From contig JBQTJX010000003.1 of NCBI GenBank assembly GCA_052386675.1, positions 2,660-66,659 of the forward strand: a stretch of DNA of 64,000 nt, written 5' to 3'. The position numbers and the translations under genes were made by a program. Below are positions 47,665 to 63,624 of this stretch, one piece after another. The notes under the pieces were generated by a model. The model saw only the letters and a program-made list of their open reading frames with translations. It was not told the DNA's origin and did no database searches. Each line of letters starts with the position of its first letter. Position 1 is the stretch's first letter. The DNA is from Betaproteobacteria bacterium (GTDB taxonomy: Bacteria; Pseudomonadota; Gammaproteobacteria; Burkholderiales; SG8-39).

Positions 47665-50600
47665 TTAGTGAAAGTCCCTTGAGCGCAGGGCGAGGCTGCC
47701 GAACAGCGGCTCGAGCATCCGGCCATGGTCCCGCAGCCGCCGGGCCACCAGGTGAACCACGTCGCCTTCACGTTCGACCACGCCCTCCACCCCGAGCAGG
47801 CGAGCCCCCAGCAGTTCCCGGCGCTGGCGCTCTGCGAGATCGCGCCAGACGATGACGTTGACGCAGCCGGTCTCGTCCTCCAGTGTCACGAAGGTGACCC
47901 CGCTCGCGGTGTCCGGACGCTGCCGGCAGGTGACCAGCCCGGCGGCGAGCGCGCGGCGGCCGTGTGCGACCGCGCGCAGTGCCTCGGCGCTCGCCAGCCC
48001 CGCCGCCTCCAGTTGCGGCCGCAACAAGGCCAGGGGGTGGCGGCCCAGAGTGAGGCCGAGGCTATCGTAGTCGGCGGCGATCGCCTCGGCCTCGCCGGAG
48101 GGCGCGAGCGGCACAGCGGCGTCCTCGCGCGGCGCGGCCATCGCCGGCCGACCCTCGCTTCCAGAGGCGAGCCAGTGCGCGTTGCGGCGGTGCCCCGCCA
48201 GCGGGTGCAGCGCATCGGCCGCTGCCAGGCAAGCCAGGTCCCTGCGGTCCAGGCCTGCGCGCCGCGCCAGTTCGTCCACGGTGGAAAACGGACGCGCCGA
48301 AACGACGCGGCGGCCGGCAACCTCGGCCAACCCGCCGACCATGCGCAATCCGAGACGGACGGCAGGCGCCGCGGGCACTGCGCCCTGCTCCAGCGTGCAG
48401 TCCCAGTCGCTCAGGCAGGCGTCCACCCCGCGTACCTCGACGCCGTGGCGGCGCGCGTCCTGCACCAGCTGCGAAGGCGAGTAAAAGCCCATCGGCTGGC
48501 TGTTGAGGAGCGCGGCGAGGAAAGCCGCCGGGTGGTGGCGCTTCAGCCACGCCGAGACGTAGACCAGCAGCGCGAAGCTCGCCGAATGCGATTCCGGGAA
48601 ACCGTAGTCGCCGAAGCCGAGGATCTGGCGGTAGATCGCGTCGGCGAAGGCCGGCGCATAGCCATTCTGCGCCATGCCCTGCTTCAATCGGGCCTCGAAT
48701 GGCTCCAGGCCGCCCTTCTTCTTCCACGCCGCCATGGAGCGGCGCAGCGCATCGGCCTCGCCGGGGGAGAATCCGGCCGCGACCATCGCCAGCTGCATCA
48801 CCTGCTCCTGGAAGATGGGCACGCCCAGCGTCCTCGACAGCACCGCCTCGACCGCCTTGCTCGGATAGATCACCGGTTCCAGCTTCTGCCGGCGGCGCAG
48901 GTAGGGATGCACCATGCCGCCCTGGATCGGGCCCGGGCGCACGATCGCCACCTCGATCACCAGGTCGTAGAAATTCTCCGGTCGCAGGCGCGGCAACATG
49001 CTCATCTGCGCGCGCGACTCGATCTGGAACACGCCCACGGTATCGGCCTCGCGGATCATGGCGTAGGTGTCCGGGTCCTCCGCGGGCACGCGGCGCATGT
49101 CCTCCAGGCCGATGAAATGCAGCGCCTTGCGGATCGCGGTCAGCATGCCCAGGGCCAGCACGTCCACCTTCAGCAGGCCGAGCGACTCCAGGTCGTCCTT
49201 GTCCCACTGGATCACCGTGCGATCGGCCATGACCGCGTTCTCCACCGGCACCAGCTCCGCCAGCGGTCCGCGCGAAATGACGAAGCCGCCGACGTGCTGC
49301 GACAGGTGGCGCGGGAAGCCGACCAGGTCCCCGGCGAGCGCGAGCAGGCGCTGCACCGCGGTGTCCTCCGGGTCGAGGCCCGCCTCGGCCAGGCGCGCGG
49401 GCAGAACCGCGCGCCCGTCCCACCACGACAGCGTCTTCGCCACGCGCTCCAGCTGCGCGGGCTCGAAGCCGAGCGCCCGGCCCATGTCGCGCAAGGCGCT
49501 CCTGGGCCGGTAGCAGATCACCGTGGCCGCAAGTGCCGCGCGTTCGCGGCCGTATTTCCCGTACACGTACTGGATCACCTCCTCGCGCCGCTCGTGCTCG
49601 AAATCGACGTCAATGTCCGGCGGCTCGTTTCTTTCCTTTGACACGAAGCGCTCGAACAGCATGCTCATGCGCGCCGGATCCACCTCGGTGATGCCCAGGC
49701 AATAGCAGACCGCGGAATTCGCCGCCGAGCCGCGGCCCTGGCACAGGATGCCGAGCGAACGCGCATGACGTACCACGTCGTGCACAGTGAGGAAGAAGGG
49801 CTCGTAGCCAAGCTCCGCGATGAGCGCCAGCTCGTGCCCGACGAGGTCCCGCACCGGTGCCGGCGCGCCGCCGGGGAAACGCCAGGCGAGACCTTCCTGC
49901 GCCAGCTTGCCCAGCCAGCTCGCGGGCGTCTCGCCCGCGGGCACCAGTTCTTCGGGGTACTCGTAGCGCAGCGCATCGAGCGAGAAGGCGCAGCGCGCCG
50001 CGACCGCCAGCGTTTCCGCAAGCAGTTCCGCCGGGTAGATCTGCGCCAGCCGGGCGCGCAGCCGCAGGTGCCGCTCGCCATTCGGGAACAGCGCGTGGCC
50101 GCAGTCCTGCACCGGCTTGCCCACGCGCACCGCGGTGAGCGCGTCCTGCAGCCGGCGGCGCGAACGTGCATGCATGTGCACGTCGCCCGCGGCCACGAGC
50201 GGCAGCCCGCTCGCGCGCGACAACTCCCGCAACCGCGCCAGCTCCACGCGGTCATCCGACCCCGCATGCAGTTCCGCCGCAATCCACGCCCGCCCCCGGA
50301 AATCATTGATGAAATCAGGGACAGACCACGTTTTTCCGTCGGAGAAATCGTGGTCTGTCCCTGTTTCTTTCCCTGCTTCCGGGAGCCAGAGGGCGAGCAG
50401 GCCGCTCCAGGCGACGCGCGCCACGTCTTCCCGCGCAAGCGCGTAGGCGCCCTTCTTCGCGCGCCGGCGGCCGGTGGTGATGAGACCGCAAAGCGCGCCG
50501 TAGGCTCGGCGATCGGGCGCGAGCAGCACCAGCCTGTCGCCCTCCTGCAGCCGGAACTCCGCGCCGATGAGCAGCTTCAGGCCGTGCTGCTTCGCCGCGA

Positions 50601-50766
50601 CGTGCGCGCGCACGATGCCGGCGAGGGAACACTCGTCGGTGAGCGCCAGCGCTGCATAGCCCAGCGCGGCGGCGCGCGCCGCCAGTTCCTCCGGCTGCGA
50701 CGCCCCGCGCAGGAACGAGAAGTTCGACAGGCAGTGCAGCTCGGCATAGTCAGGCAAAGATGCCAT
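47665..50766 (-). CDS. dnaE2: Error-prone DNA polymerase DnaE2 (ImuC)
   Basis: [56 protein letters not shown]-terminal SRDFH. Confidence 0.97.
50311..50367. repeat. 57-bp REP-like palindromic element, copy 2, in frame within dnaE2
   Basis: Arms CAGGGACAGACCACG/CGTGGTCTGTCCCTG (50316-50363); encodes [19 protein letters not shown] (DnaE2 residues 134-152). Confidence 0.9.
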
Positions 50767-51979
50767 GCACCCGCCAGCCTTCCGCGTCCCGGTACACCCA
50801 GACGAGGGAACCCCGTGCCCGCGCGACGAAGTAATCGCGGCGCACCTCTCTCCCGTCCCACCATCCTGACTCGATCCGCTCAGGCCCGGCGAGCAACTCG
50901 AGGCCGCCTTCCTCGACCCCTTTCAGCGCGCGCGGCGGCTCGACCAGCCACAGCGGGCGCGCGCCGGGTCCCGGCGCCTCCCTTACCCCGCGCGTTCCGG
51001 CCTCGACCGGCTTCCAGGCGAACTCCGGGCGGTGCTCGGCGTGCAGTCCCAGGCCATGGACCGCACCACGGCCAAAGCGGGCCTGCAGGCGCTCGACCAG
51101 GCGCAGCCAGTCTTCTCCGCCGCCCTCCTCCCCGAACAAGCCACGGCTGTGCCCGTCGAGCGGCACAATGTCCGCCGCCGACAGCCGCACCGCCTCGGCC
51201 AACGCCACGAGTGGCCGGCGCTCCAGCCGCTCGCGCAGCAGGTGCGCGAAATGCCCCGCATCCCGCGCCGGCGCGGCCAGGCCGACCTCGACCGTGGTGG
51301 CCGATGCCTTCGCATGGAACAGCTCCAGGGTGAAGCGGCGCACGCCGCTGTGGCGCGCCGCGAGGAAACCCTCCAGCCCGGTGAGCAGGCGCCGGGCCGC
51401 AAACAGCACGGCGGCCGCCTCGAACACCGGCACCGGCAGTTCCAGCCGCGCCTCGAAACGCGCCGGCGGAACGTAGAGCCGCCGCGGTTCCGGGATGCGT
51501 CCCAGCGCTTGGTCGAGTTCGTCCACCAGCGCCTGGCCGAAGCGCCGCGCCACGCCCTCACGCGGCAGCGCTAGCAGTCCGCCCAGGTCCCGGATGCCCA
51601 GCCCCTGCAGCAGCTTCAGCCGGTCTGCCGGAAGGCCGAGTACCGCGACCGGCAACTGTTCAAGAGGTAATCCGCCGCCCGCCGCCCGCCAGAGCGCCGC
51701 GCGCGCGGTGTGTGCGAAGGCGAGCACGCCTTCGAAGCCCAGCTGAGCGAGGCCGGTGCGGATCCCGCGCGCGAGTTTCCCCGCGCCGCCGTACAGGCGC
51801 AGGCTGCCCGCGACCTCGGCTGTCAGGCCCCCGGGCGGCTCAAGCGACACCTTGGGGGTGTAGCGCCCCATCCAGGCCGCGATCGCTTCGAGCGCCTCGC
51901 GCCCGGCTTCAGGCGGCGCATGCCCGCGTGCGAGCGCCTGCGACTCGATCCCAGGCAGGTGCAGGGCTACCCACAGCAT
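50750..51979 (-). CDS. imuB: ImuB (Y-family polymerase-like accessory protein)
   Basis: [28 protein letters not shown]-terminal [13 protein letters not shown]...RDYF; sits between imuA and dnaE2. Confidence 0.92.
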
Positions 51980-52607
51980 GGATCGGCCTTCCGATGTGGA
52001 AATGCAGCGGTGCGCGCGCAGGCGCGCCACGGCGCTTGAGGACATGGACGAGGACCTGCCCCCCGGCTGGTTCCAGGGCGAGGCGCAGGCGCGCCGGCGA
52101 GGCTTCCTCCGCCGCGGCCAGCGGACGAAACAGCACGACGAACGCCGGCCCGCCCTCGGCGGCCACCGCCAGCCGGCGCAGTTCCGGATAGCCCGGGCGC
52201 TGCGGCCAGGCCAGCAGAGCGTGGAAGGCGCGCGAGCGCAACGCCTGCTCGGCGGCCCACAGCGCATCGCGCCGCCCCGGCGCGCGCACCACGGTGAGGT
52301 ACTCCAGCGCCACGCCCGCCGCAGCGAGCGCCGGGGCGTAAGGCAGATGCGGCGGCGCCAGCCAGGCCACACGCTGACCAGCGGCGGTCAGCCGGGCGAG
52401 CGCTGGCAGCACCAGCTGCAGCTCACCGATGCCCTCGGTTCCGGATAGAACCTCGCTCAGCGCCCCGGTGGGCCAGCCGCCGCCGGGCAACTCGCAATCG
52501 AGAGACGGGAGACCGGTGGCGATGGCAGGCGCGCCCGCGGTCGGTGCGGCGCCACGCCAGAGGTCCTGTCGCCGGAGAAGGGGTACGAGGGAATCGAGGG
52601 GCATCAT
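51909..52607 (-). CDS. imuA: ImuA (RecA/SulA-like translesion accessory protein)
   Basis: DLWRG, TGLPSLDCELPGGGWPTGALSE, GIGELQL, EQALRS, ASPARLRL; ATG 52607 or 52604. Confidence 0.92.
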   Translation of the reverse strand: MMPLDSLVPLLRRQDLWRGAAPTAGAPAIATGLPSLDCELPGGGWPTGALSEVLSGTEGIGELQLVLPALARLTAAGQRVAWLAPPHLPYAPALAAAGVALEYLTVVRAPGRRDALWAAEQALRSRAFHALLAWPQRPGYPELRRLAVAAEGGPAFVVLFRPLAAAEEASPARLRLALEPAGGQVLVHVLKRRGAPARAPLHFHIGRPIHAVGSPAPAWDRVAGARTRACAA

Positions 52608-52612
52608 GGATA

Positions 52613-52628
52613 CTGTATATAAACACAG
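52613..52628 (-). promoter_or_regulatory. Canonical LexA box of imuA-imuB-dnaE2
   Basis: CTGTATATAAACACAG matches CTGT-N8-ACAG, 5 bp upstream of the imuA ATG. Confidence 0.93.
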
Positions 52629-52663
52629 TCTCCGGGCCCGGGCAAGCCCCGCCCTCGCTTTTG

Positions 52664-54163
52664 CTACTTCTTCTTCAGCTGCTTGACCTGCGCCATGTAG
52701 GCGGAGAGGAAATCTCGCCCGAACACCTTGTTGAAGTCGTCGTTCGCGTCGCGCGCCAGCTTCTGCTGGTAGGTGGCGAACAGCCCCCACAGCTTGGCCT
52801 TGCGGTTCAGGCCCAGGCCGCCGGAGGACTTCTCCAGGTCCTCTTCCAGCTTCTTCGGATCGAAGCGCGCCACCGCTCCCAGGATCGCGGCGCGCATCCC
52901 GGCGATCAGGGCGGCTTCATGCGCGCGCATGTCGTCGAAGGCGTCGCTCACCGCCTGCACCGGGGTGAGGAAGCCGCCGGAGCGCTCCTTCGGATCGAAC
53001 AGGAAATCGATCGCCTCCTGCGGGTCGGCCATCAGCTTGAGCGGGTTGTTGTCGCGCGAGGCGACCATGGTGCGGTCCTCGGCGCGGAATTCCTTCTTCG
53101 CCTCGGCGCGCGCCACCAGCAGCGCCATGACGCCGTCGATGGCGGCGCGCGTGATGGCGCCGCACTGGCGCAGATACTGCTCCGCCTCGGCGTCGCTGGC
53201 GAAACTGCGCGGCGGCAGCCCGGCGCCCTCGAGGAAGACCCGCAACGCCTCCTGCGCACCCGGCCCGGCTGCCCCGCCCTCGGGCTGCGGAAAGGTCGTC
53301 TCCGCAGGTCGAGTGCGCAGCAGCGTCTGCTCCAGGAACACGCTGCGGTCCTCGTACGGCACTTCCGGTTCCGCGGGCGAAGGCTTCGGCAAGTCGTCGC
53401 CTTTGGCTGGTTCGTCAAAAAAGCCGTCTTCCGGCGGCGGCAGGTTGCGCAGCAGCGTCACTTCCTTGAACACGCTGTCCTCGACGGATTCCTCCGCGGG
53501 CCCGGATCCCTCTTTCCGTCCGTCCATGGACTTGCCCATGTAGGTCGGCTCTTCGAACATGTCCGCCGGCGGCGGCGCACCGGTATAGGTCGCCTCGGCA
53601 AACACGCTGTCGTCCGTCGCTGGCGCCTTGGGTGCCTGCTCGGGCATCGGTTGCGTCACGGCCGCCGGCTGCGATTCCGGCTCCGGCGCCGGTTCGGGAT
53701 CAAGCAGTATGTCGGGCACCTCCGGCACCGGCTGGCCGATGAAGGTCGGCTCCGCGATCGGTGACCGGGTGATGAACGTCGGTTCCTCAAGCGGGGACCG
53801 GGTAATGAAGGTCGGCTCGGATGCGTCGGCGAGCGGCGGCGGCGGCGCTGGCGGCACCAGCTCGATTTCGTATTCGCCGATCTCGACCCGATCGCCGCCG
53901 CGCAACTGCACCCGGCTGCCCGGATCGTGCCGCTGTCCCGCGACGAACACCGGGTTGACCTTGGACACCACGTTCAGCCAGTACTCTCCGTCCTCGACGT
54001 TCAGCTCCGCGTGCACCCGCGATACCCACTTCTTGGGATCCTCGAGGTGCAGCAGGCACTCCGTGCCGCGGCCAATGGTGATGCGCGCATTGTCGAACGC
54101 GCGTTCGCGCAGCAGCGTCGGGCTGGCGCTGCCCTTCTGGTACAGCTTCAGCGCGAGAGTCAT
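52664..54163 (-). CDS. T6SS-associated FHA domain protein (TagH/Fha-like)
   Basis: FHA TIGRG...VSRVHA; Pro/Glu-rich linker; TagH C-terminal NNPLKL...DMRAHEAALIAGMRAA...FGRDFLSAY. Confidence 0.9.
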   Translation of the reverse strand: MTLALKLYQKGSASPTLLRERAFDNARITIGRGTECLLHLEDPKKWVSRVHAELNVEDGEYWLNVVSKVNPVFVAGQRHDPGSRVQLRGGDRVEIGEYEIELVPPAPPPPLADASEPTFITRSPLEEPTFITRSPIAEPTFIGQPVPEVPDILLDPEPAPEPESQPAAVTQPMPEQAPKAPATDDSVFAEATYTGAPPPADMFEEPTYMGKSMDGRKEGSGPAEESVEDSVFKEVTLLRNLPPPEDGFFDEPAKGDDLPKPSPAEPEVPYEDRSVFLEQTLLRTRPAETTFPQPEGGAAGPGAQEALRVFLEGAGLPPRSFASDAEAEQYLRQCGAITRAAIDGVMALLVARAEAKKEFRAEDRTMVASRDNNPLKLMADPQEAIDFLFDPKERSGGFLTPVQAVSDAFDDMRAHEAALIAGMRAAILGAVARFDPKKLEEDLEKSSGGLGLNRKAKLWGLFATYQQKLARDANDDFNKVFGRDFLSAYMAQVKQLKKK

Positions 54164-54768
54164 GATGCTGCCGCGACCTGGATGGGTTTGCCGGTAAGCA
54201 TGGTGCAGTATTGCTCGATGTCCGGGAGCCCTTCAATCGTGAACTGCATCCCGGAAGCCACTTCGGAGGTCTCGCTGGACCAGGCGCTGCAGGGTTTCAA
54301 CCGTGCTGCGGAGGGCGCAGCGCGGTCGATCCGGCAATCCGGGAGCGGGAGCGCGGCGATGGAATCGTCGAAGGCGCTGATCTCGATCGCCGGCGACAGC
54401 GCCTCGGTGCCGAGCATCTCCGCCATGGCGAACCAACTGCCCATCGCCGCCAGCGCTGCATCCGGGTCGAGCGATCCGGCCTCGAGGCCGCAGACCAGCG
54501 TGAGCGGGTAGTAGCGGCCAACCGAATCCACGCTCGGCACCATGACGCCGCACCATGCGCGCGGCGAGAGCACGCCGGGGGCGAGGACGAAGCGCCAGGC
54601 CGGCGCCGACAGGAAGCTTTCCTGCCAGCGCTCGCGCAAGCGCTCGCGGCTGCCGGCGAGGACCGCGAGCAGCCATTGCTCCCAGGGCGCGGCGAATGCC
54701 GGCTCCACCCTGCGCGAAAGGAAATCCCCGCTCGAGGGCAGCTTGCCGGTCCAGCCGCAGCGAGCCAT
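54160..54768 (-). CDS. tagF: T6SS-associated TagF/ImpM
   Basis: GWTGKLPSSGDF, APAWRFVL, GVMVPSVDSVGRYYPL. Confidence 0.9.
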   Translation of the reverse strand: MARCGWTGKLPSSGDFLSRRVEPAFAAPWEQWLLAVLAGSRERLRERWQESFLSAPAWRFVLAPGVLSPRAWCGVMVPSVDSVGRYYPLTLVCGLEAGSLDPDAALAAMGSWFAMAEMLGTEALSPAIEISAFDDSIAALPLPDCRIDRAAPSAARLKPCSAWSSETSEVASGMQFTIEGLPDIEQYCTMLTGKPIQVAAAS

Positions 54769-54776
54769 GGGCGCGT

Positions 54777-56723
54777 TCACGAGGCCTTCCCGGCCGCGAG
54801 CCGCGCGCGCGCATCGCGCACCAGCGCTTCGTTGTACGGATGCGGGATGTCGGCGCGCGCTTCCTGCAGCCCGGCGTGGAGGTGGCTGCGCAACTCGGCG
54901 CGGCGCGCCTCGGGCACCTGCCACAGGTCGGACACTGCCGCGTCCAGCGCCGCGGCATCCGGTGCTTTCGGGTCATGGAGCGCAAGGTAGGCCTTGAGCG
55001 CGGCTTCCAGCGCCTCGCGGCCGCGCGCGGCACGCACCGCGTCCTCCAGGGTGACCGCGACGCGCGCCAGCAGGCCGTCGCGCAGCGCCGTCCGGTAGGC
55101 GCGTTGCGCCTGGGAACCCAGCTTCTCGCCCTGGTACAGGCCAAAGCGCAGGGTCGCGGGCACTGGCGATTCGCGCTCGACGTAGCCGCCGGGCAGGTCG
55201 CGCAGCGTGTTGAGCGCATCGAGCAGGCGCAGTTCCCCGTTGCCGGGCACGGCCTCGGCCAATTGCTGCTTCGCCTGTGCCGCCTTCCTGGCGCTCTCAG
55301 CGACGATGGCACGATTGCCCTGGAAGCTTACGGTCCAGGCCACGGCGACCGCCACGGACAGCGCCACGAGCGCCACCTGGGCCACGGGTCGCCACGACCG
55401 GCGCCTGCCGTCGTCCTCGGCCAGCCCCTGCTCCGGGAAAATGACTTCGCGCAGAAGGCGGTTGAGGAAAAAGCTCTTGCCGGTGCTTCCCGTCTGTTCA
55501 GCGGCCGCCCGCTCCAGGCCGAAGCTGCGCGCCAGCGCGCCGAGCACGCGGTCGATCGGATTGCCTTCCTGGGTGCCACTCGTGTAGTAGACCCCGCGCA
55601 ACATGGTGGAGACGTGGTTCTGTTGCTGCGAGAAGGCGAGGCCGATGAATTCGCCCACCAGCGGCCCCAGGGCGTGGAACTGCTGCGGGAAACGGTAGAT
55701 GGCCGCGCGGCGCTGCAGGTCGCGCTCATCCTGAAGGCGTTCGACGAGCACTGCGTTGAGGCGCTGCTCCAGTTCCCTGAACTCCGCGGCATAGCGTTGC
55801 GCCAGGGTATCGGCGACAGGCTCCGAACCGGACTGGAAGGTCGTGCCCCAGACGCGGGCACGGCCTGCGGCGTCGAGTTCGCCGAAAAACTCCATGAACC
55901 CGGCCAGCAGGTCGGACTTCGTCACCAGGACGTACACCGGGAAGCGCGATCCCAGCCGTGCGTACAGCTCCGCCAGCCGCATGCGCACGTGGCCGGCGTA
56001 TCGGATGCGCTCCTTTTCGTTCCACAGCATCAGGTCGGAGACGCTGACGGTGACGATGGCGCCATTGAGCGGGCGCTCCGGACGGAACTGCTTCAGCAGG
56101 CCGAGGAAACCGTACCAGGCCGCGGCATCCGCCTTGCGATCGCTCTCCTGCGTGGTGTAGCGGCCGGCCGTGTCGAGCAGCACGGCATCCTCGGTGAACC
56201 ACCAGTCGCAGTTGCGAGTGCCGCCGACACCCTGGACCGAGGGCGCGCCCTGGTTACCATCGAGCGGGAAGCGCAGTCCGGAATTGACCAGCGCCGTGGT
56301 CTTTCCCGAGCCAGGCGCGCCGATGAACATGTACCAGGGCAACTCATGCAGGCGCCGGCGCTCGCCTTCCGGCCCTGTGAAGCGTGCCTCGCGCAACACT
56401 TCCGAAGCCGCGACGAAACGCGCACGCAATGTTTCCAGTTCCGCCGTGGCGCGCGCCGCGGAATCGCCCTCGGCGCCCGCAACCGCGATTGCTTCCAGCA
56501 TCCGGGCGGTTTCCAGACGCGCATTGTGAACGCGCCACGTCTCCCAGCCCAGCCAGGCCACTGCCGCAGCGGCGATCAGGCCGATGCGCTGCGCCGGCAG
56601 GTCGAGCGGCCGCCACTCGCCCAGGGCGATGGCATCCCCGGCGAACCAGACCACGGCCGCGAACGCGAGCCAGGCAGCGGCGCCGAGCGTCCAGCGATTG
56701 GCGAAGCGGCCGAGTCCTTTCAT
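54777..56723 (-). CDS. tssM: Short TssM/IcmF-like membrane protein (C-terminally truncated)
   Basis: LPWYMFIGAPGSGKTT, GGTRNCDWWF, DTAGRY, RFPVYVLVTKSDLLAGF, LRGVYYTSGTQEG, SFFL, LGLY-like FGLYQG; only 648 aa. Confidence 0.85.
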   Translation of the reverse strand: MKGLGRFANRWTLGAAAWLAFAAVVWFAGDAIALGEWRPLDLPAQRIGLIAAAAVAWLGWETWRVHNARLETARMLEAIAVAGAEGDSAARATAELETLRARFVAASEVLREARFTGPEGERRRLHELPWYMFIGAPGSGKTTALVNSGLRFPLDGNQGAPSVQGVGGTRNCDWWFTEDAVLLDTAGRYTTQESDRKADAAAWYGFLGLLKQFRPERPLNGAIVTVSVSDLMLWNEKERIRYAGHVRMRLAELYARLGSRFPVYVLVTKSDLLAGFMEFFGELDAAGRARVWGTTFQSGSEPVADTLAQRYAAEFRELEQRLNAVLVERLQDERDLQRRAAIYRFPQQFHALGPLVGEFIGLAFSQQQNHVSTMLRGVYYTSGTQEGNPIDRVLGALARSFGLERAAAEQTGSTGKSFFLNRLLREVIFPEQGLAEDDGRRRSWRPVAQVALVALSVAVAVAWTVSFQGNRAIVAESARKAAQAKQQLAEAVPGNGELRLLDALNTLRDLPGGYVERESPVPATLRFGLYQGEKLGSQAQRAYRTALRDGLLARVAVTLEDAVRAARGREALEAALKAYLALHDPKAPDAAALDAAVSDLWQVPEARRAELRSHLHAGLQEARADIPHPYNEALVRDARARLAAGKAS

Positions 56724-58336
56724 GGCGCCGCCCTGAGGATGATCACTACGCGGCGGTTTCGCGCGCGATTGGCCTCCGAGTCGTTGGGACCGACGGGCTG
56801 CGAGTCGGCGACGCCCTCGGCCTTGAGGCGCGCCGGGTCGGAGAGCCTGGATCCCATCAGTTTCACCACCGACTGCGCGCGCCCGGTGGACAGCTCCCAG
56901 TTCGAATGGAAGCGCGCGGAGCGGATCGGCAGGTCGTCAGTGTGGCCGGTGACCAGTATTGCGCCCGGCACGCGCTCCAGCGCCTCGGTGATCCTGAGCA
57001 CCACAGGCTCCAGCCCGGCTTCGAGCCGGGCGCTGCCCGAGGCAAACAGGCGATCGCTGCGCAGGACGATGGTACTGCGCAGGGCATCTTCGGTGACGAC
57101 AACCTGGCCGGCCTTGATTGCCTCGGCCAAGTGCGTGGCCACGCGCTCTGCGGGAACGCCGGACGCTGTCGAGGCCGCCGCCACAGTCGGCTCCGGTGCC
57201 GCCGGCGGGGCGAGCCGCGCGAGGTCGCGCGCGACAGGGTCCGACAGTGCACCGAGCGACGCGACAAAGATGAGGTAGAGCACCACCAGCACGAGCGCCA
57301 GTGCGCTGCCAAGACCCCAGAGGAGCAGCGCGCCCGGGATCCGCCGGCTTCGCGTCTTCACGCCGCGCCAGTTGGCGGACAACTCGCCGTCGGCGGCCGG
57401 CGGCCGGCGCACCGCAACATGCCCGTGAATCCGCAGGCGAACGGCCTCAAGGGCCTCCCCGCCGCCCTCCGCGCCGCGGTACTTGCCTTCGTAGCCGAGC
57501 GCCAGGCACGCATAGAAGAACTCGATCAGGTCGCCGTTCGCGAGCGGCGCCTCCAGCGCACGCGCCACGTCGTCGAAGAACTTTGCGCCGGTGGTATCGC
57601 CGTCGAGCAGCATCCGCACCAGCCCGTTCTCGGACCAGCTCGCCCCCCAGGGAGTGCGCGAAGCGGATTCATCGAGCAGCGCGCACAGCGCATGGCGCGC
57701 AACCTGTATCACCTCCGCATCGGCGCCGGCAATGCCAGCCGCCGCCTCGAACGTGTCCAGCTGCTCGGCCAGCGTCTCCCGCAGGGCGCCGGCGTCCGGG
57801 TGACGCAGCGACTGCCGGATCTGCGGCACGGCGCCCAGGATCGGATTGGCCGCCTCCACCAATGGATTGAATCCACCCAGCGCGGCGAGATCGGCACGCA
57901 CCGCATCGCGGCCTGGCTTGGGCGCAAAGGGATTGCGGCGCCTTCCAGGGGTCGGAATCGCAATGGTGGCGTCCGGGTCCAGCGCCGGTGCCTCCAGCTG
58001 CGCGGCGGGCCGCGCCATGCGCGGTGGAATCGCGACCGTCGCCTCCGGGTCGGGCGGCAGGAAAAACGGGCTGCGCGCCATCGGGTCGGTTGCTTCCGGG
58101 TCAGGTTCGGACGCGGGAGGCGACTGCGCTGCGGGTGGCTGCGCGATGGCGCGGGCCGGTATCGCGATGGTGGCATCCGGATTCTCGCCAGGGTCCTGTG
58201 TCGCGTTCAGAACCGGCAGCGGCATGGAAACCGTGGCGTCCGGATCGACCAGCGGGCCGGCCTCTGGCTTCAGCGAGGGAATGGCGACGGTTGCGTCGGG
58301 ATCAACGCCTTCGCCCGGACGCTCCGCCATCCTCAC
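56720..58336 (-). CDS. tssL: TssL/DotU with C-terminal OmpA/MotB peptidoglycan-binding domain and repetitive N-terminal extension
   Basis: NPLVEAANPIL, LCALLDE, FFYACLALGYEGKY, TM, LFASGSA, VTGHTDD, NWELSTGRA, NRARNRRV. Confidence 0.92.
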   Translation of the reverse strand: MRMAERPGEGVDPDATVAIPSLKPEAGPLVDPDATVSMPLPVLNATQDPGENPDATIAIPARAIAQPPAAQSPPASEPDPEATDPMARSPFFLPPDPEATVAIPPRMARPAAQLEAPALDPDATIAIPTPGRRRNPFAPKPGRDAVRADLAALGGFNPLVEAANPILGAVPQIRQSLRHPDAGALRETLAEQLDTFEAAAGIAGADAEVIQVARHALCALLDESASRTPWGASWSENGLVRMLLDGDTTGAKFFDDVARALEAPLANGDLIEFFYACLALGYEGKYRGAEGGGEALEAVRLRIHGHVAVRRPPAADGELSANWRGVKTRSRRIPGALLLWGLGSALALVLVVLYLIFVASLGALSDPVARDLARLAPPAAPEPTVAAASTASGVPAERVATHLAEAIKAGQVVVTEDALRSTIVLRSDRLFASGSARLEAGLEPVVLRITEALERVPGAILVTGHTDDLPIRSARFHSNWELSTGRAQSVVKLMGSRLSDPARLKAEGVADSQPVGPNDSEANRARNRRVVIILRAAP

Positions 58337-58386
58337 TCCCCCTGGTTAGCTGCCTGAATGCCCGGACAGCTGCGCGTCGCCAGCGC

Positions 58387-61113
58387 TCAGCGCCGCGCCG
58401 CGGTCGGAACGGATTCGCCGGCCAGGCGAGCCGCCTCGTACCATTGCAGCGACTCTGCCAGATCACGTCCGACGCCCGGTACACCCTTGTCGTATATCTC
58501 CCCCAGCCGCTTCGCAGCCGGGCCACTGCCCTTGCGTGCGGCGAGTCGATAGACGCGCACCGCGTCGCGGAATTTGCCTTCCTCTTCCAGCGTGCGGCCC
58601 TGAACCATCGGATCTAGGGCGGCGACCTGCGTCTTGCCTGAGGCCTGCGCCTTGGCCGCGAGCTCGGCCTGACGCTGCGCCTCCTGTTCGAGCTCCTCGC
58701 GTTCGCGGCGCGAAATCTGCGGCACGGTATCGGACTTGGGCTCGGCGATGGGAATCGCTGGCGCCGAGGGTGCCGGCGTGCCGGGAGCCAGCGAAGCCGT
58801 CTTCGTTGGCGCCTTGGCGGGTGCGGCGGACTTGGTCGCTGGAGCTTTGCCCGGGGATACCGCGGCCACCGTCTCCTGCTTGGTCGGCTCCGGCTTGGCG
58901 GGTTCGGCGACCGGCGCGGGCGCCACCGTCGGAGCCACCGCCACCGCGGGCTCCGGGGCCTTCACCGGGGCCTTGCTCTGCTTGTCGGCGGTGGCCTTGG
59001 CCTTGCTCGCGGCTTCAGCCGCGGCTGCCGCCGCCGCCTGACGCTGCTTCACCAGCTCCGCCTGCTTGTTCATCTCCGCCTCGGCGCGCTTGGCGGCATC
59101 CTGCGCCTCCTTCAGCTTGGCGGTATCGCCCGCCTTGCGCGCGGCCTCCTCTGCTGCCCGCGCCTGCTCGAACGCCTTCAGGGACTCCAACTGCTTCGCC
59201 TGCGCCTGCTTCAATTCCTCGGTCGCCTTGGTCGCGTCCTCGAAAGCCTTCACAACCTGGGCCTGACGCTCGCGTGCCTCCTTGCCCAGGTAGTACCAGG
59301 CGCCTCCGCCCAAACCAACCAGCAGGACGAATCCCGCGACAATCGGGATTACCGGAATCTTGCCCTTTGGCGCGTCGGCCAGTTCCTTCTTCAGTTGCGC
59401 TTCGCGCTTGGCGTGCTCGGCTTCGCGCCGAGTGCGCTCTTCGGCTTCCTTCTTTGCACGTTCCTCGGCGTCCGCTTTCGCCTTGGCCAGTTCCTCAGTC
59501 TGCTTCTTCGCACGCGCTTCCGCTTCGGCCCGCGCCTTGGCGGCCGCGACTTCGGCTTCCTTGCGTGCCTTCTCCTCGGTCTCGCGTCGCGCCTTGGCTT
59601 CCGCCTCGGCCTTGGCGCGCGCAGCAGCGGCCTCAACGTCGCGCCGGGCCATCTCGGCCTCGTACCTCGCCTTCGCCTCCGCCTCGCGCTTTGCGAGCAG
59701 GCTCTCGGCATCTTTCCTGGCCTTCTCGATCTCCAGCGCCCGCGCCTTGGCGTCGGCTTCGGCCTTTGCCTTCATTTCGGCTTCGCGCTTGGCGTCCTGC
59801 TCCGCGCGCGCTTTCTCCGCGGCGATGCGACGGGCCTCCGCCTCGGCCTCGCGTTTCTTGAACTCCGCCTCGCGCTCGGCCAGTTGCTGCTCAAGCTTGG
59901 CCTTCTCGTCCGCGAGCTTCGTGCGCGCTTCCTCTTCCTTGCGCGCGGCCTCCTCCAGCTCTTTCTTCTCCTGCTCCCTCGCCTTGGCGCCAGTCTCCTC
60001 CGGCGCCACGCCGCGCAGCTTCGCGATCTTGCGCTTGGCGAGCGCGGCATAGATCCCCGCCGGAAACTGCTGCACGTAGAGCTCGAAGTCGTCCGGGTCG
60101 TTGCCGTCCTTGATCGAGCGCCAGAACTCCAGCTCGACTTCCTGAGTGCCCGAGGCAGTGGCGTTGGTCCTCGCCGAGGCGTCGGCCTTGGCCGCGGCCA
60201 TTTGCGGCACCGGCATCATCCCGGTGGCAGACATCGATCCGACCACGGTCTTGTCGTCGTCCTCCTCGCCATGACCTTCCAGCGCACGCTTGAGCGCGAG
60301 GCCGAGGTCGCGGGCGGTCTGGTAGCGCGCCTCGACGCTCTTGGCGAGTGCCTTGTTGACCACCGCGTCAAACAGCGCCGAGACGCCCTTGTTGATCGAC
60401 GACGGGACCGGCGGATTGTCCTGGATGATCTTCTTGGCGATGGTCCAGGCGCCCGAGCCGGTGAACGGCTTCTCGCCGGTCAGGAACTGGTACAGGATGA
60501 TGCCGGCAGAGAAGATGTCGCTGCGCCGATCAACGCTGCCACCCGTGATCTGCTCCGGCGACATGTAGGCAGGCGTGCCAACCATGGTCCCTGCCTGGGT
60601 CTTCTCGGTTGAGGAACTGTCGGTGATGCGCGCGACGCCGAAATCGGCCAGCTTCACCTTGCCAGTGGTGTCGATCATCACGTTGGCCGGCTTGATGTCG
60701 CGATGCACGATGCCCGCCTCGTGGGCAAAGTGCAGCGCGTCGCACAATTCCGCCATGATGCGAACGGCTTCCTTGATGTCGAAGCGCTCACTGGCGTCGA
60801 AGAAGTTCTTGAGCTCCTTGCCCTTGATGAACTCCATCACGATGTATGCGATGTCACCTTCCTCGCCGAAGTCGTACACCTGCACGATATTGGCGTGGTT
60901 CAGGCGTGCGACCGCCTGGGCCTCGCGCACGAACCGCATCGAGTATTCCTTGGCGGTGTCGGCGTCAAGCGCGCTCTTCAGGATTGTCTTGATCGCAACC
61001 GTGCGATGCAGGCGAGGGTCGATGCCGGCGTACACCATGCCCATCGCGCCTTTGCCGAGGACACGGTCTATGTCGTAGCGGCCGAGCCGCTTGATGTCAG
61101 GCGCGGCGGACAC
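58387..61113 (-). CDS. Membrane Ser/Thr kinase with long coiled coil, TM and C-terminal Sel1-like repeat
   Basis: GKGAMGMV, VAIK, HRDIKPAN, DFGVAR, GTPAYMSPE; EAKARA-rich helix; TM IVAGFVLLVGLGGGAWYY; LGEIYDKG..RDLAESLQWY; start GTG 61113 (after GAGGG) or TTG 61149. Confidence 0.9.
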   Translation of the reverse strand: MSAAPDIKRLGRYDIDRVLGKGAMGMVYAGIDPRLHRTVAIKTILKSALDADTAKEYSMRFVREAQAVARLNHANIVQVYDFGEEGDIAYIVMEFIKGKELKNFFDASERFDIKEAVRIMAELCDALHFAHEAGIVHRDIKPANVMIDTTGKVKLADFGVARITDSSSTEKTQAGTMVGTPAYMSPEQITGGSVDRRSDIFSAGIILYQFLTGEKPFTGSGAWTIAKKIIQDNPPVPSSINKGVSALFDAVVNKALAKSVEARYQTARDLGLALKRALEGHGEEDDDKTVVGSMSATGMMPVPQMAAAKADASARTNATASGTQEVELEFWRSIKDGNDPDDFELYVQQFPAGIYAALAKRKIAKLRGVAPEETGAKAREQEKKELEEAARKEEEARTKLADEKAKLEQQLAEREAEFKKREAEAEARRIAAEKARAEQDAKREAEMKAKAEADAKARALEIEKARKDAESLLAKREAEAKARYEAEMARRDVEAAAARAKAEAEAKARRETEEKARKEAEVAAAKARAEAEARAKKQTEELAKAKADAEERAKKEAEERTRREAEHAKREAQLKKELADAPKGKIPVIPIVAGFVLLVGLGGGAWYYLGKEARERQAQVVKAFEDATKATEELKQAQAKQLESLKAFEQARAAEEAARKAGDTAKLKEAQDAAKRAEAEMNKQAELVKQRQAAAAAAAEAASKAKATADKQSKAPVKAPEPAVAVAPTVAPAPVAEPAKPEPTKQETVAAVSPGKAPATKSAAPAKAPTKTASLAPGTPAPSAPAIPIAEPKSDTVPQISRREREELEQEAQRQAELAAKAQASGKTQVAALDPMVQGRTLEEEGKFRDAVRVYRLAARKGSGPAAKRLGEIYDKGVPGVGRDLAESLQWYEAARLAGESVPTAARR

Positions 61114-61319
61114 CGGCGGGGATCCCTCGATGCCGGGGGCGGCCTGCAAGCATCGGATTTTGCGTAAGTTTCAGCACGGTTCTGGTCGCGATGTCCGAAT
61201 TGTAGATTATCTCGGCGGGCCGGGTTGCTGACAAGGGCATTTGTCGCGCCCTGGCGTCACCCTCGCCGTCGAATCCGTTGAACGGATCATTCGCAAGGAA
61301 GGGTCAATTGTGGGGGGGG

Positions 61320-62051
61320 TCAGCGAATCGAAGGCCCGCGCGTCTCGGCGCGCGGCACCGCGACACCCTGCTCGCGCGCCAACTGGTACCACCTAAGTGC
61401 CGTAGCGTAGTCGCGCTGCACTGCGGCCGTGCCCTTGTCGTAGATCTCGCCCAGCTTCCTCTGCGCCAGGCCGTGGCCTGACTCCCCCGCCTCCAGGTAG
61501 GCGTTGAAAGCTCCGACCTCGTCGCCCCGGCGTTCCGCCGCCAGCCCGTCCTTATAGCGTCGCTCGGCCTCGTCCCGCCCGAGCAGGCCTTTTCCCGGGC
61601 GCTTCTGCGCCGCTCCTGGAGCCGGAACGGCCGCTACCGGTGGCGTCACCGGTCTGGGCTCCGCCGCGGCAGGCGGAGGCTTCAGGGCAGTCAGGGTACG
61701 GACCTCCAGCATGGCTTCCGCCGGCGGCAGCTCCGCCATGGCGTCGCGCGGTGGAATGGCCAGCACCGCACCGACCCGCAACTGGTTGATGTTGCCCCCG
61801 GTGAAGGCATCCGGATTCGCCCGGAACAGCGCCACCAGGACCTGATTCAGCGTCACACCTTCCGGCCGCAGCCGGCGGGCAATGGCGTACAGGGTGTCGC
61901 CGCGTTTGACATCGTAGGACACTGCCGCTCTTGCCGGTGCCGAAGCTGCAGGTTTCGCGTCCGGCGCTTGCGCACCTGAGGCGATCGGGAATAACAGGGA
62001 AAGCGAAAGGGCGATGGACCTCGCAACAGGGATCGTGGCCGTTACTCGCAC
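61320..62051 (-). CDS. Exported FimV N-terminal (LysM-like) plus Sel1-like repeat protein
   Basis: Signal peptide; YDVKRGDTLYAIA...LNQVLVALFRANPDAF..GNINQLRVGAVL; LGEIYDKG..RDYATALRWY; start inferred. Confidence 0.82.
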   Translation of the reverse strand: MRVTATIPVARSIALSLSLLFPIASGAQAPDAKPAASAPARAAVSYDVKRGDTLYAIARRLRPEGVTLNQVLVALFRANPDAFTGGNINQLRVGAVLAIPPRDAMAELPPAEAMLEVRTLTALKPPPAAAEPRPVTPPVAAVPAPGAAQKRPGKGLLGRDEAERRYKDGLAAERRGDEVGAFNAYLEAGESGHGLAQRKLGEIYDKGTAAVQRDYATALRWYQLAREQGVAVPRAETRGPSIR

Positions 62052-62926
62052 GTGAATTCGAGCACGTCGGTCGCAGTGGAGCGCGACTGCCCGAACGTGA
62101 TCCAGCCCTTGCCGCGCAGGGTGAACTCCTCCCGGCGCAGCACGATTTCCTTGTCGCCGTCGACGGTCACGTAGGTGCCGTTGGCGCTGTGGTCCGTGAG
62201 GATGAACTTGTCCAGCCGGCGCTCGATCTTGCCGTGCGAGCGCGAAGCCATCTTGTCGCGCACCACGAGATCCGCGCTCTGGTCCCGGCCCATGGACACC
62301 GCGGTGCGCTCGTCTGAAAGCATGGTCTCGCCTCCCTGCAGCAGCAGGCGCAGCGAGGTCTTCTTCGGCTTCAGCACCGAGCGCGCCGCTGCCATGGTGG
62401 TGGCGTCCTCGCTCTGCTGCCACATCAACTCGTAGGCCTCGACCGGCTCCGACTTGCCCTTGACTGCGATCTGGCTGATCTTGCGCGTGGCGCTCTTGAG
62501 CATCGGCGACATCAGCATCACAGTTTCGCGCGAGGTGATGATCTGCCCCTTGACCGCCACATGCGACAGGCGCGAGGCAACGTTGACCGCATCGCCAAAA
62601 ATGTCACCATCCTTGTGCACCAGCGGGCCAAAGTAGAAGCCGACACGTATGCCAATCTTGGTGCCACCTACCGGCAGCAACTCGCTGATGGCGCTCTGCA
62701 TCTCGATCGCGGCGTCGGCCGCCGCGTCCGCGTCCGGGAAGGTGGACAGCACTTCGTCGCCGATGGTCTTGATGACCTTGCCCTTGGCCGCCTCGGTCTT
62801 CTGGCGCATCAGCACGATGCAACGCTCGATGGCAGCATGCGCGGCCTGATCGCCGGCGGTTTCGTACAGCTTGGTGCTGCCGCTGACGTCGGCGAACAGG
62901 ACTGCGGCTTCTGGTTCGGCACTCAT
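62042..62926 (-). CDS. Class III adenylate cyclase with C-terminal FHA domain
   Basis: FADVSGST, VIKTIGDE, DIFGDAVNVASR (K/D specificity pair and N/R intact); FHA MGR...SRSH...ANGT. Confidence 0.92.
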   Translation of the reverse strand: MSAEPEAAVLFADVSGSTKLYETAGDQAAHAAIERCIVLMRQKTEAAKGKVIKTIGDEVLSTFPDADAAADAAIEMQSAISELLPVGGTKIGIRVGFYFGPLVHKDGDIFGDAVNVASRLSHVAVKGQIITSRETVMLMSPMLKSATRKISQIAVKGKSEPVEAYELMWQQSEDATTMAAARSVLKPKKTSLRLLLQGGETMLSDERTAVSMGRDQSADLVVRDKMASRSHGKIERRLDKFILTDHSANGTYVTVDGDKEIVLRREEFTLRGKGWITFGQSRSTATDVLEFTCE

Positions 62927-62939
62927 GGCGTCGGTCGGT

Positions 62940-63278
62940 TCAGCCAAACATGGCCTGCAGGATGCGGCGCGCCGGCGCCGCGTCGGCCTGCCCCATGCGC
63001 CGAGACAGGCGCGTCACCGAGAGGCAGCGGATCTGGTCCAGCGCGACCGAGCGCGGCTTGGCGAGCACTGATACCACGCAGCGGGTCGGCCAGTCACGGT
63101 TGGTGGAGGTCAGTGGTGCGACGATGACGGTCGACAGGACCCGATTCATCTCGTCGGGCGACACTACAAGTACTGGCTGGCGGCCGGACGAGGCCAGGTC
63201 CGCGAGGTAAATGTCACCCTGGCGTGGCGTGGCGGGGCTGGCCGGGCTGCGCTGGCTATTGGTCGCAAGCTTCGCCAA
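62940..63278 (-). CDS. PemK/MazF family toxin
   Basis: RQGDIYLADL, PVLVVS, VIVAPLTS, LDQIRCLS..RL; overlaps the antitoxin gene. Confidence 0.85.
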   Translation of the reverse strand: MAKLATNSQRSPASPATPRQGDIYLADLASSGRQPVLVVSPDEMNRVLSTVIVAPLTSTNRDWPTRCVVSVLAKPRSVALDQIRCLSVTRLSRRMGQADAAPARRILQAMFG

Positions 63279-63507
63279 GCGGCACCCCCTTCAACAGGTC
63301 TTCCCTCACCTCGCCTGCCCTCGCCGCCCGGAGCTTCTCCTCCCAGCCCGGACGAGGGTTCTTCGCCCTGCCTGGCGAGATCACGATCGAACGCGCGCGG
63401 ACCTCGATGTCCACGGGGTCGCCAGCGTCCAGGCTGCAGCGCCGCAGCACATCCTGCGGCAGGCGCACTCCCTTCGAATTTCCGATTGCGACGATTTTGC
63501 TCTGCAT
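63256..63507 (-). CDS. AbrB/MazE family antitoxin
   Basis: IVAIGNSKGVRLPQDVL, IVISP, PRPGWEE; ATG 63507. Confidence 0.88.
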   Translation of the reverse strand: MQSKIVAIGNSKGVRLPQDVLRRCSLDAGDPVDIEVRARSIVISPGRAKNPRPGWEEKLRAARAGEVREDLLKGVPLGEACDQ

Positions 63508-63518
63508 GGGCCGGGAAG

Positions 63519-63535
63519 TAATTACTACGTAATTA
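63519..63535. promoter_or_regulatory. Palindromic operator of the TA pair
   Basis: TAATTAC-TAC-GTAATTA, 11 bp upstream of the antitoxin ATG. Confidence 0.7.
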
Positions 63536-63541
63536 TGCACC

Positions 63542-63570
63542 AAAAAAAACGGGGCGCTTGCGGCGCCCCG
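63542..63570 (-). terminator. Intrinsic terminator downstream of the exoprotein gene
   Basis: Stem CGGGGCGC/GCGCCCCG with a run of 8 T on the minus strand. Confidence 0.8.
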
Positions 63571-63624
63571 CGTTCGCGCACCCATTTTCACAGGGCGCGA
63601 GGGGTACGGATGTTCCGGCCCGGC

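Follow-up and report, generated by a model that had tools for sequence, protein, structure and literature searches.

The DNA analysed here, referred to as the window throughout, is a stretch of 64,000 nucleotides (~70% G+C) from a Betaproteobacteria bacterium. Between positions 52664 and 62947 it carries a block of seven genes that joins membrane and regulatory parts of a type VI secretion system (T6SS) to a Hanks Ser/Thr kinase and an adenylate cyclase. By their sequence matches, four of these genes are assigned to T6SS descent, encoding a long-form TssL, a cut-back TssM, TagF and Fha/TagH, and three are classed as recruited, encoding a Sel1-tipped Hanks kinase, a FimV_core/LysM-Sel1 protein and a cyclase-FHA fusion. 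We propose, with a probability of roughly 0.55, that the block derives from an H1-type T6SS, has been conserved under selection and functions without the secretion apparatus, using a phosphothreonine (pThr)/FHA scaffold to give a cyclic AMP (cAMP) output. Two components of this proposal, the independence from a T6SS and the selection acting on the genes, we consider very probable. In an uncultured clade of soil Burkholderiales, the base of a weapon appears to have been turned into an envelope signalling device.

All seven open reading frames (ORFs) are intact and co-oriented on the minus strand, as determined by ORF, Pfam and NCBIfam analysis. The genes and the motifs within them are as follows:

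62042..62947, minus strand: class III adenylate cyclase with a C-terminal FHA fusion, 301 amino acids when read from TTG 62947 (Pfam Guanylate_cyc 1.5e-17, FHA 1.9e-09)
61320..62051, minus strand: mini-FimV, consisting of a signal peptide, FimV_core/LysM, a Pro/Ala linker and one Sel1 module (TIGR03505; Pfam LysM and Sel1)
61206..61234, minus strand: sigma-70-like promoter match at 10 of 12 consensus positions, a match to the consensus alone
58387..61149, minus strand: Hanks Ser/Thr kinase with a Sel1 tip, 920 amino acids (Pfam Pkinase 6.4e-57, Sel1)
56720..58336, minus strand: long-form TssL with an N-terminal extension, a DotU domain, a transmembrane segment and an OmpA-like domain (DotU 5.4e-51, OmpA; TIGR03350 above cut-off)
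57953..58303, minus strand: six [DN]P[DE]AT motifs in the TssL N-terminus (motif scan)
54777..56723, minus strand: short TssM of 648 amino acids, with a transmembrane hairpin, a GTPase-like NTPase domain, a third transmembrane segment and a periplasmic helical domain of 173 residues, followed by the stop (Pfam, NCBIfam)
54160..54768, minus strand: TagF, 202 amino acids (TagF_N 2.2e-41; TIGR03373 130 bits, cut-off 41)
52664..54163, minus strand: Fha/TagH of 499 amino acids, with an FHA domain, a disordered linker and T6SS_FHA_C (4.3e-51; TIGR03354 9e-71, 240 bits, cut-off 120)
53312..53818, minus strand: Thr-centred motifs in the Fha linker (motif scan, Tandem Repeats Finder (TRF))

An initial annotation made from the letters of the window had described these seven genes, and all of them proved to be real, on the minus strand and with architectures backed by Pfam and NCBIfam. 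The spacing it gave, with overlaps, distances of 8-50 bp and a single larger gap before the kinase, was likewise confirmed. The cyclase and mini-FimV genes overlap by 10 nt, the gap between mini-FimV and the kinase gene measures 170 bp and holds the sigma-70-like site, and 50 bp separate the kinase gene from tssL. The tssL/tssM and tagF/fha junctions are ATGA overlaps, and the ATG of tagF lies 8 bp past the tssM stop. Two sigma-70-like sites occur in the region, against 0.8 expected. In agreement with the earlier statement that the block holds no T6SS structural or PP2C gene, Pfam detected no PP2C, TssJ, TssK, TssE/F/G, TssB/C, Hcp, VgrG or ClpV domain in the seven products.

The genome to which the window belongs (3.70 Mb in 74 contigs, 93% estimated completeness) was searched for a T6SS encoded elsewhere. 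It contains no match to TssC (PF05943/VipB), Hcp (PF05638) or TssF (PF05947). The closest canonical cluster, L084, supplied TssK, TssC, Hcp, ImpE, TssE and TssM residues 660-1174 as tblastn queries, none of which had a hit in the same genome, TssG not being searched separately. A partnership of the block with a phage-type contractile sheath or an extracellular contractile injection system was also considered and ruled out, as Phage_sheath_1 has no match in this genome.

For a wider comparison, the short TssM was scanned against ~186,000 species genomes, which yielded three kinds of loci. Group A (L002-L021 and L023, plus L085, L086 and L089) comprises blocks in metagenome-assembled genomes (MAGs) of Burkholderiales/Betaproteobacteria, whose TssM is 48-88% identical to that of the window. 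Group A blocks begin with cyclase-FHA and mini-FimV, continue with the kinase, tssL and short tssM and end with tagF and fha, after which imuA usually follows; this order is shared by L002-L021, L085, L086 and L089 and is conserved in at least 24 species-level genomes from three genera. Group C loci encode a TssM that is ~530 residues longer, in the order tssL-tssM-tagF-kinase known from H1-type clusters. Group B, described further below, consists of a reduced TssL-TssM pair found in group A MAGs.

None of the 21 other block-bearing genomes contains TssC, which was detected in 19/20 genomes with the full-length relatives of group C, serving as positive control. With the window's own genome included, the comparison is 0/22 versus 19/20 (Fisher p = 4.5e-11). 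In an even sample of 151 genomes from the same GTDB family, all seven genomes with a full-length TssM contain TssC, in contrast to 0/13 whose TssM is of the short or mini form. The sample includes eight further genomes of the window's genus, 95-98% complete, and none of these has TssC. Block orthologues in relatives never adjoin sheath or baseplate genes. The central claim of the initial annotation, that of an orphan, non-secretory module with no complete cognate T6SS elsewhere in the genome, is strongly supported by these searches within and across genomes.

TssM is the component in which the block departs most visibly from a T6SS membrane complex. The window protein has the traits of the family, with an N-terminal transmembrane hairpin, a P-loop NTPase domain and a third transmembrane segment. 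It matches the IcmF-related_N domain completely (6.4e-88), the IcmF-related profile at positions 1-153 of 308 and no IcmF_C. Against TIGR03348 it covers positions 3-639 of 1168 and lacks model positions 640-1168, leaving it ~530 C-terminal residues shorter than canonical proteins. In the established architecture of the membrane complex, the C-terminal half of TssM binds TssJ and spans the periplasm. Of the parts of such a full-span complex, the block holds TssL and a TssM without this half, and no TssJ (TssJ was not searched genome-wide). A split tssM gene was ruled out, as tblastn with residues 660-1174 of the L084 protein found no separate C-terminal piece in the window's genome, where the block TssM is the only one.

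The shortened end is a conserved feature. Where the best alignment of a group A locus extends to the last query residue, the stop follows window residue 648 by 0-16 amino acids. Four further loci (L011, L020, L086 and the contig-cut L023) have shorter alignments, which leave 40-61 amino acids to the stop, and their ORFs are equally short. GAPGSGKTT and DTAGRY, corresponding to the G1 and G3 motifs, are invariant and the G4 motif TKxD is kept in all 25 group A TssM proteins. An AlphaFold2 model built with 46 homologues has a GTPase-like cytoplasmic domain and an all-helical stretch at residues 470-648, with a pLDDT mostly of 73-95 and a mean of ~87. With this confidently predicted periplasmic helical domain, TssM ends at a domain boundary. 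A sequence search of the PDB with the short TssM gave no match. A fold search returned generic GTPases only and no TssM structure, confirming the NTPase fold and nothing beyond it. In protein clusters formed at 90% identity, at least 120 metagenome clusters of short TssM were found; the best 120 listed are 591-677 residues long (nearly all 605-677), 55-93% identical to the window protein and named TssM/ImpL if at all.

In a maximum-likelihood tree of the shared NTPase region, the short and mini TssM proteins form one clade (SH-aLRT 100), in which the group B proteins are nested among the short ones. Just outside lie short forms of two other genera and a canonical protein, from genome G105, of the same family as the window. 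The canonical cluster of G105 reads TssK-TssL-TssM(1174 aa)-TagF...TssC-Hcp-ImpE-TssE. Together with the conserved stop, the tree indicates that the truncation of TssM is old and inherited. Relative to the nearest relative, L008 (dS 0.34-0.81), the ratio of nonsynonymous to synonymous substitutions (dN/dS) is lowest for cyclase-FHA at 0.05, which makes it the most constrained of the seven genes, and amounts to 0.12 for TssM, 0.14 for the kinase, 0.20 for both TssL and TagF, 0.22 for mini-FimV and 0.27 for Fha, compared with 0.19 for the neighbouring imuA. Pseudogenisation in relatives, which had been named as a point that could count against an orphan module, was not found, given the conserved stop position, dN/dS and motifs. 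As a separate observation among the relatives, L087 (G064:C38, 9318-13534), from a member of the family, carries a canonical-type tssM and tagF each broken into two frames, which could reflect pseudogenes or an assembly error; elsewhere its genome holds an intact cluster of full length and multiple TssC copies, of which some are fragmented.

The 21 group B loci (L040:8484-11149, L034, L036, L038, L042, L044, L046-L053, L060, L063, L068, L078, L079, L090 and L091) consist of TssL-OmpA and a TssM of ~380 residues that comprises the NTPase domain only and ends before the third transmembrane segment, ~10 amino acids past window residue 435 (the best-hit alignments stop at 426-441). Their neighbours are housekeeping genes, e.g., for Hsp70 and glyoxalase, with no TagF, Fha, kinase or cyclase nearby. 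The group B TssL also carries N-terminal Thr repeats. In 4/21 loci the P-loop Lys of TssM is lost. The pair is not present in the window's own genome.

A gain of Thr motifs accompanies the loss of the TssM C-terminus. Canonical TssL proteins carry a single N-terminal motif, D-x-D-[RK]-T-[VI]-I-[MR]-P-x-P-G-G-R. The window TssL has [DN]P[DE]AT motifs at residues 12, 31, 52, 79, 96 and 120, five of them of the form T-[VI]-x-[IM]-P, and group A TssL proteins generally carry 4-7 DPDATVxxP copies, the last of which retains a PTPGRRR tail like that of the canonical motif. In Fha, the window linker contains seven motifs (EPTFI three times, EATYT, EPTYM, EVTLL and EQTLL), and group A linkers contain 2-5 [DE]E[AP]T[FY][VI]G motifs, which are absent from canonical Fha linkers. 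The Thr repeats pointed out in the initial annotation are hence real and specific to this lineage. A recent DNA tandem repeat as origin of the TssL motifs was ruled out, since TRF finds only one repeat, of 33 bp, in Fha. This repeat (53738-53818, 2.5 copies, 81% matches) encodes three EPTFI(T/G) motifs and appears to have arisen recently, by local expansion of a motif that resembles a phospho-acceptor site. In Agrobacterium tumefaciens, PpkA phosphorylates TssL at Thr14 and Fha binds the site, the peptide being DLPpTVVEI (PMC3953482). By likeness to this peptide and to the canonical single motif, we infer that the Thr motifs of the window TssL and Fha are putative phosphosites.

The kinase of the block consists of a Pkinase domain, an E/K/A/R-rich helix of ~220 residues, a transmembrane segment at residues 598-620, a periplasmic helix, a Pro/Ala linker and Sel1. 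At least 14 Hanks kinases are encoded in the window's genome, and the kinase domain of the block is 67% and 56% identical to two non-T6SS paralogues, C68:25580-27838 and C37:20065-21000. The C68 paralogue has an equal layout (kinase, FWRSIKD-type motif, charged helix, transmembrane segment, periplasmic helix, Pro-Ala, Sel1) and lies among unrelated metabolic genes. The same architecture is present in L085. The identity drops to 27-43% for the kinases next to canonical clusters, whose periplasmic domain is of a different kind. The comparison with PpkA drawn in the initial annotation therefore stands with respect to position, a Hanks kinase being part of the block, and lacks support with respect to descent, as the block kinase is closer to non-T6SS paralogues and has a Sel1 tip in place of the group C periplasmic domain.

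For the cyclase-FHA protein, ATG 62926 is a likelier start than TTG 62947. Class III cyclases use a metal-binding Asp pair, a substrate-specifying Lys/Asp pair and a transition-state Asn/Arg pair. Aligned to PDB 3mr7 and Ma1120, the protein has intact catalytic motifs FADVSG, KTIGDE and FGDAVNVASRL, and by sequence the expected residues are present, i.e., D in the first motif, K and D in the second and D, N and R in the third. The FHA domain keeps its GR, SRSH (SxxH) and NG signatures. Cyclase-FHA lies upstream of the block in 12/12 group A loci with enough sequence, across three genera, and was never found near the group C clusters inspected. The window's genome encodes two further cyclase-FHA paralogues, C19:44358-46819 (41% identity) and C9:41270-45113 (38%). 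Inspection by eye of the surroundings of these two and of the C68 kinase paralogue revealed no T6SS-derived genes. The C19 copy overlaps the end of a 524-residue membrane protein that by eye resembles an MscS-type channel with a C-terminal cyclic-nucleotide-binding region, and the C9 copy, again judged by eye, precedes a PAS histidine kinase.

The start of mini-FimV at GTG 62051 gives MRVTATIPVARSIALSLSLLFPIASGAQA and a protein of 243 residues, which matches TIGR03505 FimV_core at 4.3e-23 (80.9 bits, cut-off 43.45). Its sole hydrophobic segment is the signal peptide; it has no further transmembrane segment and no cytoplasmic part, and NCBIfam gave no match to the FimV C-terminal/TPR domain. 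The gene is conserved in group A loci. An analogy to the FimV-CyaB pair of Pseudomonas, as suggested initially, cannot apply directly, because without a transmembrane or cytoplasmic part mini-FimV could not contact a cytoplasmic cyclase in the manner proposed for that pair. The Sel1 module of mini-FimV is 44% identical over 70 residues to kinase residues 851-920, and this paralogy with the kinase tip suggests a shared ligand or a periplasmic partnership.

On this basis we infer every biochemical step of the proposed device, from phosphorylation and FHA docking to cAMP output. TssL, through its OmpA-like domain, and the short TssM would form an inner-membrane complex fixed to peptidoglycan. The kinase would sense a periplasmic or cell-wall cue via its Sel1 tip, possibly together with mini-FimV and its paralogous Sel1 module, and would phosphorylate the multiplied Thr motifs at the N-terminus of TssL and in the linker of Fha. 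Both Fha and the cyclase could then dock on pThr through their FHA domains, giving a multivalent, possibly condensate-like assembly close to the membrane that would localise or activate the cyclase and produce a local cAMP signal. The system may be reset by TagF, which would bind Fha, and by PP2C phosphatases from other loci. In Acidovorax citrulli, TssL foci need Fha and TssM and are independent of TssJ, TssF, TssB, Hcp and TssA, and Fha, as well as PpkA with Fha, forms condensates that recruit clients at the inner membrane (bioRxiv 10.1101/2023.12.21.572528; PMC12607579). By analogy, the T6SS parts retained in the block would be the subset that assembles by itself in A. citrulli. A stronger form of the proposal, which we put forward tentatively and at somewhat less than even odds, is that of an exapted, secretion-free and peptidoglycan-anchored signalling organelle, in which the Sel1-tipped kinase would sense the cell wall and place several pThr marks on TssL and Fha, and an FHA/pThr network, possibly a membrane-bound condensate comparable to those of Fha in Acidovorax, concentrates the cyclase and confines cAMP, so that the "envelope attack" sensor of the T6SS would have been rewired to a second messenger.

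A number of observations weigh against the proposed signalling device or limit its reach. As orthology of the kinase to PpkA is not supported, the substrates of PpkA are not transferable to it. An orthologous block in another genus, L086 (G067:C41, 1457-9385), holds cyclase-FHA, mini-FimV, TssL, short TssM, TagF and Fha and has no kinase gene between mini-FimV and tssL. The basal group A loci L015 and L019 carry one TssL motif only, so that multivalency is not universal. No PP2C gene lies in the block, the three PP2C_2 genes of the genome being located elsewhere. The regulator of the cyclase may be other than TssL or Fha, given the two cyclase-FHA paralogues in unrelated contexts. In the tree, the subclade of the window is sister to the mini TssM paralogues of group B, which bears on the duplication history. 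All carriers are uncultured MAGs, so that a T6SS is judged absent from draft assemblies, which are nevertheless numerous and 95-98% complete. Finally, among sequencing runs the stretch was found in DNA runs only and in no RNA run.

Other explanations were weighed against the signalling device. The T6SS-descended quartet could be functional and independent of secretion and yet mainly structural or positional, a peptidoglycan-fixed landmark or an envelope-integrity complex comparable to MotB/Pal-type anchors or FimV/HubP-type hubs, the cyclase being one pThr client or a co-regulated neighbour and cAMP not its defining output. Group A MAGs also retain the group B pair, which has none of kinase, Fha, TagF and cyclase in its surroundings, and this indicates that a TssL-TssM core is valuable by itself; mini-FimV matches the FimV/HubP polar-landmark core, and the promoter-like site suggests that cyclase and mini-FimV may be a separate transcription unit. 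We nonetheless judge this explanation rather unlikely, since cyclase-FHA is both invariably upstream in the loci that can be assessed and the gene under the strongest constraint, no other pThr partner for its FHA domain is evident in the vicinity, and the Thr repeats of the group B TssL point to phospho-signalling even there. It is more doubtful still that TssL and the short TssM serve transport or anchoring in another, unrecognised envelope machine that replaced the T6SS tail, with kinase, Fha and TagF as its assembly regulators. The TssM and TssL homologues IcmF and DotU also serve type IVB systems, and the block gives a weak NCBIfam match to IcmF_IVB/IcmH; moreover, the NTPase motifs of TssM are invariant and a periplasmic helical domain, folded according to the model, is kept. 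Against such a machine, the genome holds neither a T6SS nor a phage-type sheath, no conserved structural genes lie beside the block, where the neighbours are MazEF and imuABC, and every member lacks that half of TssM which forms the channel and binds TssJ.

The block could also be what is left of a lost T6SS, in decay and functionless today. This would fit a family that includes members with a canonical T6SS, so that loss has occurred, and a TssM cut in the middle of a Pfam domain. We consider this very improbable and discarded pseudogenes as a candidate on the basis of dN/dS (0.05-0.27), the conserved TssM stop and the invariant NTPase motifs; the ORFs are in addition intact in the species-level genomes of all three genera despite the divergence of TssM, the lineage gained Thr motifs and partner genes, and the short TssM recurs in the metagenome clusters. 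Least probable of all, and rejected here, is the alternative offered in the initial annotation, in which the block would be a regulatory or membrane satellite serving a T6SS from another part of the genome. It could draw on the 93% completeness of the window's genome, and it is contradicted by the negative searches for TssC, Hcp, TssE, TssF and TssK in that genome, by TssC in 0/21 other carriers versus 19/20 controls, by the uniform lack of TssC in the more complete genomes of the same genus and by a TssM whose missing C-terminal half would be needed for binding TssJ and for spanning the periplasm.

Compared with the H1-type T6SS of P. aeruginosa, A. tumefaciens and A. citrulli, the block shares the tssL-tssM-tagF order of its canonical relatives, a long-form TssL with an OmpA-like domain, whose best PDB match is P. 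aeruginosa TssL1 (4b62, 1.7e-33), and an adjoining Hanks kinase. Its Fha/TagH (FHA plus T6SS_FHA_C) and TagF pass the NCBIfam cut-offs for the Thr phosphorylation pathway, and its acidic-x-T-hydrophobic TssL motif is like the canonical single motif and the pT14 site of A. tumefaciens. It differs in that its genome lacks the tube, sheath and baseplate proteins searched (Hcp, TssC, TssE/F/K), TssM is shortened, the cluster has no PppA, and the kinase appears to belong to another paralogue family, with a Sel1 tip instead of a PpkA-type periplasmic domain. The multiplied Thr motifs on TssL and Fha, the cyclase-FHA and the mini-FimV are additions. The group B pair shares with the block the TssM clade, the MAGs, the TssL Thr repeats and the absence of a T6SS (TssC) from the genomes; it differs by its shorter TssM, by the lack of TagF, Fha, kinase and cyclase, and by its absence from the window's genome.

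In P. aeruginosa, cAMP is controlled by FimV/FimL and CyaB, a membrane-anchored cyclase of the MASE2 type. The block likewise pairs a gene for a FimV_core peptidoglycan-binding protein with a class III cyclase gene; its protein is, however, periplasmic, with none of the transmembrane, TPR and C-terminal parts of FimV, its cyclase is soluble and fused to FHA, unlike CyaB, and no FimL or pilus genes occur in the block. Modules of Hanks kinase, FHA protein and PP2C phosphatase in Actinobacteria and Myxococcus (FhaA/FhaB-PknB, OdhI) resemble the block in kinase, FHA partners and Thr-x-x-hydrophobic motifs, and weak NCBIfam matches to FhaB/OdhI-type FHA domains occur in the block. In contrast to these modules, its scaffold is derived from a T6SS (TssL/TssM/TagF/TagH), anchored to peptidoglycan and coupled to a cyclase. 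A tssL-tssM-tagF-fha block that occurs with a kinase and a cyclase but without a T6SS did not turn up in our search of the literature for TssL/TssM modules that are orphan, truncated or independent of a T6SS, and a search on cyclase-FHA fusions likewise gave no result. All parts of the block belong to known families, and there is a substantial chance that their combination is a new use of T6SS parts.

The block is bordered as initially annotated, by imuA on one side and a toxin-antitoxin pair, MazEF, on the other. Both flanks lie outside the module:

62940..63591, minus strand: MazE/MazF toxin-antitoxin pair, upstream flank (Pfam PemK_toxin 5.6e-18, MazE_antitoxin 1.3e-06)
47665..52790, minus strand: imuA-imuB-dnaE2, downstream flank (DnaE2 Pfam domains; imuA with a weak RecA/SulA-like match)

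MazF adjoins the block also in L003, L008 and L085, and in most group A loci the gene immediately after fha is an imuA homologue. A strong terminator-like hairpin of 9 pairs (8 G-C) followed by a T run lies at 63549-63571 on the minus strand, upstream of mazE and within the longest possible mazE ORF, so that the true mazE start is probably further downstream. Just past dnaE2 and co-oriented with the block are genes for a REC plus adenylate/guanylate cyclase protein (46155-47303, minus strand) and a REC plus Hanks kinase protein (44868-46145, minus strand). The same cyclase and kinase pair lies ~8-9 kb downstream of tssM in L007, L011, L018 and L021, which means that the neighbourhood of block, imuA-imuB-dnaE2 and REC-cyclase/REC-kinase is conserved.

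Annotations and survey counts treat T6SS parts as the sign of a weapon. Here, a large environmental clade possesses tssL, tssM, tagF and tagH and no weapon, and its short TssM clusters in metagenomes are simply labelled TssM/ImpL. If the proposed device is true, it would be the first example, to our knowledge, of a T6SS membrane core and its Thr-phosphorylation switch being reused for signalling. It would then provide a natural minimal system for three questions of T6SS initiation, namely for the role of the TssM NTPase, for the interplay of pThr-TssL, Fha and TagF without baseplate or tail, and for the question whether multivalent pThr/FHA contacts drive condensates. Through its FHA-cyclase fusion, it would moreover connect signalling by Hanks kinases with cAMP in proteobacteria.

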